Assembly (NCBI GenBank): GCA_945918795.1
Contig: CAMEIT010000002.1
Coordinates: forward strand, 42-64,041
Origin: an uncultured Clostridia bacterium
GTDB taxonomy: Bacteria > Bacillota > Clostridia > HGM11327
DNA length: 64,000 bases
Reading direction: 5' to 3'
Part shown: piece after piece, positions 4,130 through 24,042 of the stretch
Layout of the letters: each line of letters starts with the position of its first letter
Position numbering within the stretch: the first letter of the stretch is position 1
Translations under genes and position numbers: made by a program
Notes under the pieces: generated by a model
Databases searched by the model: none
What the model was told of the DNA's origin: nothing
What the model saw: the letters and a program-made list of their open reading frames with translations, nothing else

Positions 4130-4687
4130 ATGGAATATCTGTGGAAAGTGCTCGGCATAATGGCGGTTGTTTGTGCCGTGGCAAATATAGCTATTAATAT
4201 TCTTGTTATTTTCAGAGTGAAAATGACATTCAGCTGTGATATATATATAACAGAATATGTGATGTCGGCTGTTATTTTGCTTGCTTTGCTAAGACAGCTT
4301 TTGAGCGATACGTGGATAGTCATAATATCAGCATTGCTTTTGCTCTTGTGGTGTGTACTTATGAGCGTATTCAGGCTTAAAGGGCTTCATTTTATAAGAG
4401 TGTTCGGCATAAAAAAGGTAATGCACGAGAAGCTACGCGATAAGCTTGAAAAATCATGCGCGAATGCCGGACTTGACAGAACGAGCGCTTATATTTACGG
4501 CGGCGACGCTGAGACTCCGTGCAATATGATAATATTCAGGCACGCCGATTCTGCTGTGAGAAAGTCTGTTACCTATGACGTAAATAAATTCATGAAGAAT
4601 TATGCCTGCGGAATAGTTGTGCCGTGCGTGGTGGAGTTTCTGCTTGATGCGGCGGTCATATTTATTGTTTTCAGCGTGCTGGTGTGA
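4130..4687 (+). CDS. Hypothetical integral membrane protein
   Basis: 185 aa with several hydrophobic helices and an AAAGGA RBS. No recognisable family. Confidence 0.45.
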   Translation: MEYLWKVLGIMAVVCAVANIAINILVIFRVKMTFSCDIYITEYVMSAVILLALLRQLLSDTWIVIISALLLLLWCVLMSVFRLKGLHFIRVFGIKKVMHEKLRDKLEKSCANAGLDRTSAYIYGGDAETPCNMIIFRHADSAVRKSVTYDVNKFMKNYACGIVVPCVVEFLLDAAVIFIVFSVLV

Positions 4688-6519: not shown

Positions 6520-7221
6520 TCACATAATACTCATTAATTGCAAAAGATACAGTATTATGAAAAAGACAACGGGCACGGCGAGCGCGGGAAGCATATTAAG
6601 CGTTTTTATGTTTTTGATGTTGAGTATGGATATTCCCGAGCTTGCAATCAATATGCCGCCTATAATTGAAATTTCGGTCATGAGGTCGGGCGGAATGAAG
6701 TTGCCCGCCAGACAGCCCAAAAGGTATATACTGCCCTGCCACACAAAAAGTACGCCTGCCGCAAGGGCGATGCCTATGCCGTATGTGGACGCGAGCACCA
6801 TGGATGTGACAAGGTCGAGGGTTGCATTTGTGAAAAGATAAGTATTGTCCGAATTAACGGCACTTTCTATCGGTCCGAGTATTGAGAGCGTGCCTATGCA
6901 GAACAAAAGCACAGCCGTTGAAAGACCTTTGCCGAGCTCCGACGAGCCGAATTTGATTTTGTCTGTAAGATTGTGAAAGCCCGAATCTATATCGAGAATA
7001 TTGCCTATCAGACTGCCCAAAGCAAGGCTCACTATAAACAGCACGGGATATTTGCTGTTGGGCATATTTTTAACTACGGCGTTTATGCCGAGTGCTGTTG
7101 CCGCAAGCCCCATTGCCGTGAACAGTGCGTCGCGGTATTTTTCTTTTATTCCTTTTCTTGCAATACTTCCTATTGTACTGCCGACTATTATTGCGGCAGT
7201 GTTGACGACGGTTCCTATCAT
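6520..7221 (-). CDS. DUF554 family membrane protein (YqgA/YdfK-like)
   Basis: 233 aa polytopic membrane protein. The N-terminus MIGTVVNTAAIIVGSTIGSIARKGI is typical of DUF554. Confidence 0.6.
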   Translation of the reverse strand: MIGTVVNTAAIIVGSTIGSIARKGIKEKYRDALFTAMGLAATALGINAVVKNMPNSKYPVLFIVSLALGSLIGNILDIDSGFHNLTDKIKFGSSELGKGLSTAVLLFCIGTLSILGPIESAVNSDNTYLFTNATLDLVTSMVLASTYGIGIALAAGVLFVWQGSIYLLGCLAGNFIPPDLMTEISIIGGILIASSGISILNIKNIKTLNMLPALAVPVVFFIILYLLQLMSIM

Positions 7222-19226: not shown

Positions 19227-19302
19227 TGGAGCCGGTTATGGGACTCGAACCCGCAACCTGCTGATTACAAATCAGCTGCTCTACCAATTGAGCTAAGCCG
19301 GC
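19227..19302 (-). tRNA. tRNA-Thr (UGU)
   Basis: Cloverleaf with anticodon loop TTTGTAA; CCA is encoded. Two A-C mismatches, in the acceptor stem and the T stem. Confidence 0.8.
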
Positions 19303-19328
19303 AAGATAAATTATGTGTAACCGAAAAC

Positions 19329-19405
19329 TGGCGACCCGGATGAGGCTCGAACTCACGACCTCCAGCGTGACAGGCTGGCGTTCTAACCAACTGAACTACC
19401 GGGCC
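19329..19405 (-). tRNA. tRNA-Asp (GUC)
   Basis: Anticodon loop CTGTCAC, T-loop TTCGAGC, CCA encoded. Confidence 0.85.
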
Positions 19406-19413
19406 AGGAGTTT

Positions 19414-19489
19414 TGGTGACCCATCGCAGACTCGAACTGCGGACACCTTGATTAAAAGTCAAGTGCTCTACCGCCTGAGCTAATGGGTC
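19414..19489 (-). tRNA. tRNA-Lys (UUU)
   Basis: Anticodon loop CTTTTAA, acceptor GACCCAT/ATGGGTC, CCA encoded. Confidence 0.85.
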
Positions 19490-23584: not shown

Positions 23585-23667
23585 AATATTGAAATCTCCT
23601 TTTGTTTTTTGTTTTTGGGGACTTTTGAAAGAAGCCAGTAATAATCTCTTCGAGATTATTACGCAAG

Positions 23668-23886
23668 CCCGAAAACTTTAAAACGCTTCGCGGTTTACAC
23701 ATCTTCCCGCCGAGAGTATGGCGGCAAGATGTGCATTGAATTTACACCTCTTTTTCGGGGTTTTTTTCTTGGGAGCTTTTGAAAAGCTCCCAAACCCGAA
23801 AACTTTAAAACGCTTTGCGGTTTACACATCTTCCCGCCGAGAGTATGGCGGCAAGATGTGTATTGAATTTACACCTCTTTTTCGGG
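23668..23886. repeat. Two tandem copies (23668-23759 and 23795-23886) of a 92-nt highly structured element in the glgD-glgA intergenic region
   Basis: The copies differ at 2 of 92 positions. Each has outer stem CCCGAAAA/TTTTCGGG and an inner 14-bp hairpin CACATCTTCCCGCC/GGCGGCAAGATGTG. The spacer carries the hairpin GGGAGCTTTTgaaaAGCTCCC. A degenerate third copy lies upstream (~23600-23667). Confidence 0.8.
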
Positions 23887-24042
23887 TTTTGAGTGCACCT
23901 TAATATAAGAAAGAAACGTAAACTTAATGGCAATCTGACTTGACGATCATCGGCAAGGCAGATTGTCAACTGCAACGCAGTTTAAAGTTTCGCACAAGCC
24001 TTTTCAAAGGCTTGGCGGGGTACGGGCGGCAGCCCGAAAAAA

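Follow-up and report, generated by a model that had tools for sequence, protein, structure and literature searches.

The glycogen operon of the uncultured Clostridia bacterium examined here carries, between glgD and glgA, a long spacer filled with repeated hairpins, and the question raised by this locus is whether the repeats belong to the operon or to the genome at large. In the window (the whole 64-kb stretch of DNA that was analysed), glgC, glgD, glgA and glgP form an operon on the minus strand, and all four genes are NCBIfam equivalog matches. The glgD–glgA spacer, put at about 460 bp and called unusually long in the preliminary description, measures 458 nt (23585–24042), and it folds much better than its shuffles on both strands (z = −9.2 and −9.8). 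Two unit types are distinguished within it, F (copies A and B, in plus-strand reading) and C (a third copy, in minus-strand reading), and covariance models were built in this analysis from F units (R1) and from C units (R2). From glgC to glgP, the features are as follows.

26417–25206, minus strand: glgC (NCBIfam equivalog).
25176–24043, minus strand: glgD, stop codon 24045–24043, the upstream flank of the spacer (NCBIfam TIGR02092 GlgD, 317 bits).
24023–24036, minus strand: small GC hairpin CGGGCTGCCGCCCG, the first C-type module, starting 6 nt past the glgD stop; the same module precedes the C-type units at the pnp and feo loci described below.
23995–24014, minus strand: P0c hairpin CAAGCCTTTGAAAAGGCTTG, an inverted repeat with a conserved CTTTGAAAAG top, whose stem differs by unit type yet stays complementary.
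23899–23994, minus strand: C-type element with a 39-nt imperfect palindrome, P3c, at 23929–23967 (pattern match; model R1, 35 bits, E=6e-6; model R2, 139 bits over 23899–24030; hairpin fold).
23791–23890, plus strand: F-type unit copy A, core 23795–23886 (model R1, 129 bits).
23769–23793, no strand: P0 hairpin TTGGGAGCTTTTGAAAAGCTCCCAA between the copies, with 12-nt arms that are 100% complementary; variants of this module occur in other strains and at other loci.
23664–23763, plus strand: F-type unit copy B, core 23668–23759 (model R1, 125 bits).
23638–23662, no strand: optional AT-rich hairpin module GTAATAATCTC-ttc-GAGATTATTAC, followed by TGGCTTCTTT on the glg sense strand; an inverted repeat, also called the TAATAATC hairpin, whose presence varies by unit and strain.
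23617–23636, plus strand: degenerate P0 hairpin GGGGACTTTTGAAAGAAGCC of copy B's unit, a direct repeat with 83% identity to the intact P0 region; an intact GGGGAC/GTCCCC stands at the same position in strain contigs L094 and L096.
23584–22139, minus strand: glgA, the downstream flank, with a GGAG ribosome-binding site at 23596–23599 (NCBIfam NF001898 GlgA, 626 bits).
22158–19660, minus strand: glgP (NCBIfam equivalog).

The 92-nt core is indeed present twice, with two mismatches between the copies (the 98% identity previously given) and with no such match in shuffles of the window, where none is expected by chance. As a description of the tandem repeat, 92 nt holds for this core and not for the period, which is 127 nt and comprises the core, a small hairpin and an A-rich linker; the extended repeat is 100 nt long. 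Each copy folds into an outer stem of 8–11 bp (arms CCCGAAAA/TTTTCGGG), a 3-bp mini-hairpin and a 14-bp inner stem with one mismatch (arms 23698–23711/23720–23733 in copy B and 23825–23838/23847–23860 in copy A), in keeping with the nested 8-bp outer and 14-bp inner stems of the preliminary description, and the hairpin reported to separate the copies was found as GGGAGCTTTTGAAAAGCTCCC at 23769–23793. The degenerate third unit said to lie upstream has two candidates, both of them present: the small-hairpin copy at 23617–23636, which adjoins the additional TAATAATC hairpin at 23638–23662, and a full unit at 23899–24036, beyond the interval described at first. The latter is inverted and diverged, with ~53% identity to copies A and B, and was recognized from an inverted-repeat match together with comparison with other strains.

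A full unit (~125–155 nt) consists of the small hairpin P0 and the element, with the optional AT-rich hairpin between both. P0 is a short GC hairpin with a conserved CTTTTGAAAAG top, and ahead of the C element stands a separate small hairpin that shares the CTTTGAAAAG top. The element itself has a conserved A/T-rich framework (...GAAAACTTTAAA...GTT...CATTgAaTTTAC...TCTTT), which in C units follows the same order as in F units, namely GAAACTTTAAA, mini-hairpin, GTT, a palindrome of 38–39 nt, CATTxAxTTTAC and TCTTT. The imperfect palindrome, P3, is 38–40 nt long in every copy, while its stem sequence is free to change.

Within the window, models R1 and R2 recover the glg copies only (three, in one cluster). 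The picture changes when other contigs of the same organism are considered. In the pnp–pda spacer, a C unit (R2, 151 bits) is paired with an F unit in inverted orientation (R1, 75–79 bits). About 3 kb downstream, beside a FeoB-associated gene (the feo locus), an F unit (R1, 88–93 bits) precedes a tandem array of three or more inverted C units (R2, 142–153 bits) with a period of ~141 nt. Assembly GCA_964318515.1 holds the glg locus (L094) and, on another contig, the pnp and feo clusters, and seven other assemblies are alike; the pnp locus was tracked through an identical PNPase (P0404) in the eight assemblies, and the assignment of the pnp contig to the same organism is by metagenome binning, on which the eight independent assemblies agree. 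A further C unit, F unit and P0 hairpin abut a convergent histidine-kinase gene on an orphan metagenome contig (L008). The family is therefore seen at three loci and on L008, among ~85 kb of this species. A head-to-head C/F pair is common to the glg, pnp–pda and feo loci and to L008, and one partner of the pair is tandemly amplified, F at glg and C at feo. Over its first 70 nt, palindrome included, the F copy of the feo locus matches window copy B at 97% identity, and beyond that at 50%, a mosaic which points to exchange between loci as far as sequence can tell. A glg-locus-specific reading had been drawn from a strict framework pattern, AACTTTAAANNGCNTNGCNGTTN{30,46}YAYTNARTT, which matched no genome contig (185,579 species genomes), no viral contig and one metagenome contig (L008); it was wrong, the pattern being over-strict, since the copies elsewhere differ from it at one or two positions.

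Two observations on annotation and assembly attach to these loci. On L105, the called start of pda (polysaccharide deacetylase) falls within the P0 hairpin of the repeat (6581–6680; ATGGACGCTTTTTCAAAAGCGTCC), and the true start is likely to be ~100 nt further downstream (MKILKASLKK), as in the relative L089. On L001 (ENA ERZ27232969 k141_161454, 4380–4520), glgD is followed by a C unit, an F unit, P0 and then the terminator/3′ end of a convergent pnp; this is unlike the eight other assemblies, in which pnp is followed by the C/F pair and then pda, and the L001 junction has only a T-rich run and GGG in common with the normal pnp locus. The glgD–pnp join, for which the array is probably responsible, is either a misassembly or a true rearrangement broken at the repeat. 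Contigs also disagree on the P0 stem of the feo locus, which reads GGACGC in L105 and GGGGAC in L104 and L108.

Contigs with identical GlgD or GlgC were found in NCBI assemblies GCA_019972995.1 and GCA_964318515.1 and in several ENA and Logan assemblies. They diverge from the window by 0–12% at 4-fold degenerate sites and are therefore strains of one species. A single C unit lies beside glgD in all of them, and the number of F units varies: one in L002/L098 (spacer 331 nt), two in the window, L094 and L095 (455–482 nt), three in L096 (584 nt) and at least four in L091/L097 (877 nt including a scaffold gap). Nine contigs (L003, L004, L007, L092 and L099–L103) stop within the array. Modules are also shuffled among strains, with two versions of the F palindrome P3, presence or absence of the TAATAATC hairpin and four complementary versions of the P0 stem; L095 has two extra small hairpins, a half-deleted C palindrome and no TAATAATC module. 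In L095, L099 and L101 (8400–8475), the glgD stop is immediately followed by two extra tandem units of ~35 nt (ATTTTTCGGGGCnTTGCCCCGAnCCCCACAAGCG), which represent a duplication of the small GC hairpin module alone. The C palindromes of L007 (2740–2778) and L091 (4201–4239) are only 51% identical to that of the window (23929–23967), against 91% for their flanks, yet all form hairpins of equal length at the same place. Judged from these sequences, wholesale replacement, and not drift, seems to account for the stem of the C unit.

Tandem repeats of strain-variable copy number in operon spacers are a feature that this array shares with the MIRU-VNTR loci of Mycobacterium tuberculosis. MIRUs, however, are 40–100 bp long, often contain short ORFs with translational coupling to the flanking genes and are not multi-hairpin palindromes, and neither period found here (127 or 154 nt) is divisible by 3.

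The spacer in relatives, the comparison of which had been proposed in the preliminary description, is short. At ~80% GlgD/GlgA identity the glgD–glgA spacers measure 34, 158 and 183 nt and contain no element, and relatives whose PNPase is 94% and 90% identical likewise lack the pnp–pda insert. At both sites there is thus an insertion polymorphism, filled in this species and empty at the orthologous position in relatives. Models R1 and R2 found nothing in ~1 Mb from 80 other Clostridia, nor in the pnp loci of the relatives with 94% and 90% PNPase identity; the ~1 Mb of negative control consisted of loci from the genome-contig scan with the PNPase fragment of L001, in which the matches listed were all of ≤68% identity.

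Taken together, we consider that the 92-nt copies are probably units of an undescribed, species-restricted family of interspersed mosaic palindromic repeats, of the same kind as REP/BIME, REPIN, BOX and ERIC. Because copies sit elsewhere in the genome and their number varies from one to at least four by strain, the units are most likely repeat DNA and not a dedicated glycogen regulator. Of the possibilities raised earlier, that of a REP/BOX-like intergenic repeat is the one supported, by the unit types at two other loci, the inverted pairs, the tandem amplification of one partner and the strain-variable number.

The closest parallel is with REP/BIME, especially BIME-2 and atypical BIMEs, and with REPIN (PMC3333891, PMC3116915), which are likewise extragenic imperfect palindromes of 30–40 nt with conserved stem mismatches. 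BIME-2 and atypical BIMEs are REP/iREP inverted pairs in tandem, with linkers and copy number at a locus that vary by strain (PMC3333891). The inverted pairs with variable linkers seen here, the tandem amplification of one arrangement, the strain-variable linkers and copy number, the mosaic of small modules and the frequent location between co-transcribed operon genes all resemble this organization. The family differs in having no sequence similarity to REP and no E. coli GTAG foot motif, in units that are ~3–4 times larger, with extra hairpins (P0 and TAATAATC) and a long conserved unpaired framework, and in its host, an uncultured Clostridia species, with three to four loci seen in ~85 kb compared with hundreds for REP. 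Mismatches in the REP stem are required for binding by TnpA(REP), the REP-associated Y1 transposase (RAYT) (PMC3333891), and a single-strand HUH-type enzyme has been proposed for BIME-2. A tblastn search with an approximate IS200 TnpA query, a weak test, found no transposase or RAYT in the window or in 111 loci.

With the modular boxA-boxB(n)-boxC repeats of Streptococcus pneumoniae (PMC3184786) the family shares a Firmicute host, a modular and intergenic character, a variable number of internal modules and predicted stable RNA/DNA hairpins in transcribed spacers. It differs from BOX in sequence and in module set, in that either partner of the inverted pair can be amplified, and in that no counterpart was found of the IS proposed to mobilize BOX. 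ERIC and the Correia repeats, both of MITE type, are also imperfect palindromes of ~100–150 nt in transcribed intergenic regions at rearrangement-prone sites, and are able to alter mRNA stability or to carry promoters (PMC3184786); unlike the present family, in which neither feature was found, they possess defined terminal inverted repeats together with duplicated TA targets, and tandem arrays are atypical of them (PMC3184786). The features of a gene-specific leader or riboswitch are lacking, in that units neighbour three different genes (glgA, pda and one associated with FeoB), lie in either orientation and show no conservation above neutral. Because its behaviour is BIME-like, its sequence is its own and the hallmarks of a MITE were not found, we file the element as a new family of a known kind, outside the REP, BOX, ERIC and Rfam families. 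The Rfam scan proposed in the preliminary description matched no family: at gathering scores the window gives only tRNAs, the spacer gives nothing credible at E≤10 and the other loci give no match. The tRNAs are three genes on the minus strand directly downstream of glgP (19230–19489; Rfam tRNA, 64–68 bits). A BLASTN comparison of the spacer with plasmids and phages was likewise without a match.

There is evidence that the hairpins themselves are maintained. A one-column offset between the C and F palindromes in the raw MAFFT alignment let RNAalifold recover only part of the structure, and hand-defined structures were used instead. Across 14 distinct F units, standard pairs fill 86% of pair cells, compared with 40–49% when the partners are slid, and six pairs have changed on both sides. 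Without exception, the 12 C-type palindromes retain a mismatch at stem position 15, and this holds even for one whose stem is unrelated in sequence; alpha-type F units share a conserved C.C mismatch. The foot of the palindrome sits in the context GGTTTAC for F units, and GTTGAC or ATGAG for C units. This covariation indicates hairpin maintenance and is not proof of RNA function, because template switching or gene conversion also gives compensatory change, so that compensatory changes in DNA palindromes can arise in these ways and do not prove selection. Outside P3, divergence is 9%, compared with 3–12% at 4-fold sites, which is close to the neutral rate; counts of G-T versus A-C pairs gave no signal of strand preference; and units occur in both orientations within one spacer. 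These three observations argue against a strand-specific functional RNA.

Several candidates were discarded along the way. On the glg sense strand of copy B, AGAGGTG-N8-ATG would open an ORF of 13 codons, considered as a small ORF or type I toxin; it was rejected on account of ATA in place of ATG in copy A, GAAACG in place of the RBS motif elsewhere and frame shifts caused by P3 length. A 61-codon plus-strand ORF (23718–23903) spans two copies and shrinks to 15 codons in a single-copy strain, and integron attC sites and sporulation-sigma promoter motifs, checked by eye, did not fit.

Other explanations of the array have to be set against the repeat-family reading. A classical MITE, in which the ~290-nt C–linker–F composite is a non-autonomous transposon whose ends are recognized in trans by an IS transposase and the tandem arrays are secondary, would account for the dispersal of the family across intergenic sites, for a pnp–pda site filled in this species and empty in relatives, for near-identical 70-nt segments common to distant loci and for the long inverted arms of the composite, which fold into a long hairpin. 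We regard it as unlikely: these arms are only ~53% identical, no transposase was seen in the window or loci with the approximate query, and amplification of single arms together with module shuffling fits BIME-like behaviour better. Moreover, the composite ends in different modules, and comparison of the filled and empty pnp–pda sites defined neither a target-site duplication nor short terminal inverted repeats, a weak test given the diverged flanks. Quite unlikely is an array of small RNA genes, each unit being transcribed on its own as a structured sRNA, with copies A and B antisense and copy C sense to the glg transcript. The unit size of ~100–150 nt is typical of sRNA gene repeats, most units in F orientation end in the outer stem followed by 5–7 T, and the C unit contains, on the glg sense strand (24007–23979), a match to a sigma-70-like consensus, TTGAAA-17-TAAACT, which is conserved among the glg-locus C units. 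The C units elsewhere, however, carry TAAAAA, with the final T missing, and F units have no acceptable −35/−10 spacing (21 nt, or broken by a 27-nt hairpin insert). With no canonical promoter and terminator found per unit, both orientations in one spacer, unbiased wobble pairs, near-neutral divergence outside P3 and no Rfam match, the duplicated small RNA envisaged in the preliminary description has little support.

The array lies exactly between the two halves of the operon, and a glg-specific cis-regulatory RNA (tandem leaders, attenuators or riboswitch-like aptamers, or an RNase processing site) controlling glgA–glgP apart from glgC–glgD would suit this position, as it would the three-way-junction-like shape, with its conserved unpaired segments and covarying stems. 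It would also suit the arrangement on the glg sense strand, where units bearing the TAATAATC module are followed by an AT-rich hairpin and a T-rich tract that are terminator-like by consensus scan. Such a regulator is nevertheless very unlikely, in that the same units occur in the pnp–pda spacer and beside the FeoB-associated gene in either orientation to their neighbours, copy C is opposite in orientation, strains have one to at least four copies, the terminator-like module is absent in L095, a 34-nt spacer suffices in relatives and there is no conservation excess over neutral sites. The RNA processing or stability element envisaged in the preliminary description, separating glgCD from glgAP, would at most be a side effect of units that are not particular to glg. 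At the other extreme, a purely local, neutral tandem duplication without relatives elsewhere has almost no probability. It agrees with a 64-kb window that holds the glg cluster only, and with the almost empty first scan of the genome, metagenome and viral collections by the strict pattern. It is contradicted by the members at two further loci of the species and on L008, and because of these other copies the array is not a purely local duplication. A neutral local duplication had been expected to show no other copies together with short spacers in relatives; the short, element-free spacers are there, and the absence of other copies is not.

It is interesting to speculate on how a repeat family of this kind might arise and what it might do at the glg locus. 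We hypothesize that units spread and change by recombination or replication slippage between units, or through a single-strand HUH-type enzyme, and that modules may be exchanged between loci, the element being DNA of a selfish or near-neutral kind that is tolerated between cistrons. Transcribed with the operon, the hairpin array would probably loosen the coupling between glgCD and glgAP, by weak termination at the AT-rich hairpin, by acting as a stabilizing 3′-end hairpin for glgCD or possibly through an internal promoter. Each TAATAATC module has, on the minus strand, a TTTAAA-16-AATAAT match and a weak terminator-like AT-rich hairpin with a T-rich tract by consensus scans, and units at the other loci have no such promoter- or terminator-like matches; on sequence grounds, we would treat these matches, and the sigma-70-like one, as leads only. 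A more ambitious version, which we consider doubtful, is that the units are REPIN-like replicating hairpin doublets in a Gram-positive anaerobe, kept by a single-strand enzyme (HUH-type or other) that reads the framework and the invariant mismatch and tolerates or drives stem replacement, the glg array then setting, as a by-product, the expression of glycogen synthase and phosphorylase differently from strain to strain.

An undescribed interspersed repeat family in an uncultured Clostridia lineage is of interest since such elements are poorly catalogued there, and the present case illustrates that a tidy ‘structured RNA in an operon spacer’ can turn out to be repeat DNA. At this locus many short-read assemblies are interrupted by the array, which is relevant to the annotation of MAGs, as the pda start called inside the repeat demonstrates. 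Its copy-number polymorphism provides a ready strain marker and, if the array alters glgA–glgP expression, it would offer a simple natural means of varying glycogen metabolism between strains.

Two further observations concern the neighbourhood of the repeat and the spacers of relatives. Compared with the window, L007 (glgD at 1528–2661) has 17 amino-acid differences in GlgD and none in GlgC, while divergence at 4-fold sites is alike in both genes (5–6%); this sequence comparison suggests faster protein change, or recombination, in the glgD beside the repeat. Finally, a different motif is present in the glgD–glgA spacers of the relatives at ~80% identity (L005, 4150–4250; L006, 3540–3610) and on L008 (180–240). 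It consists of a hairpin, TGTC, a second hairpin, GAC and (T)GAAGGAG, has no Rfam match and may represent another small repeat family.
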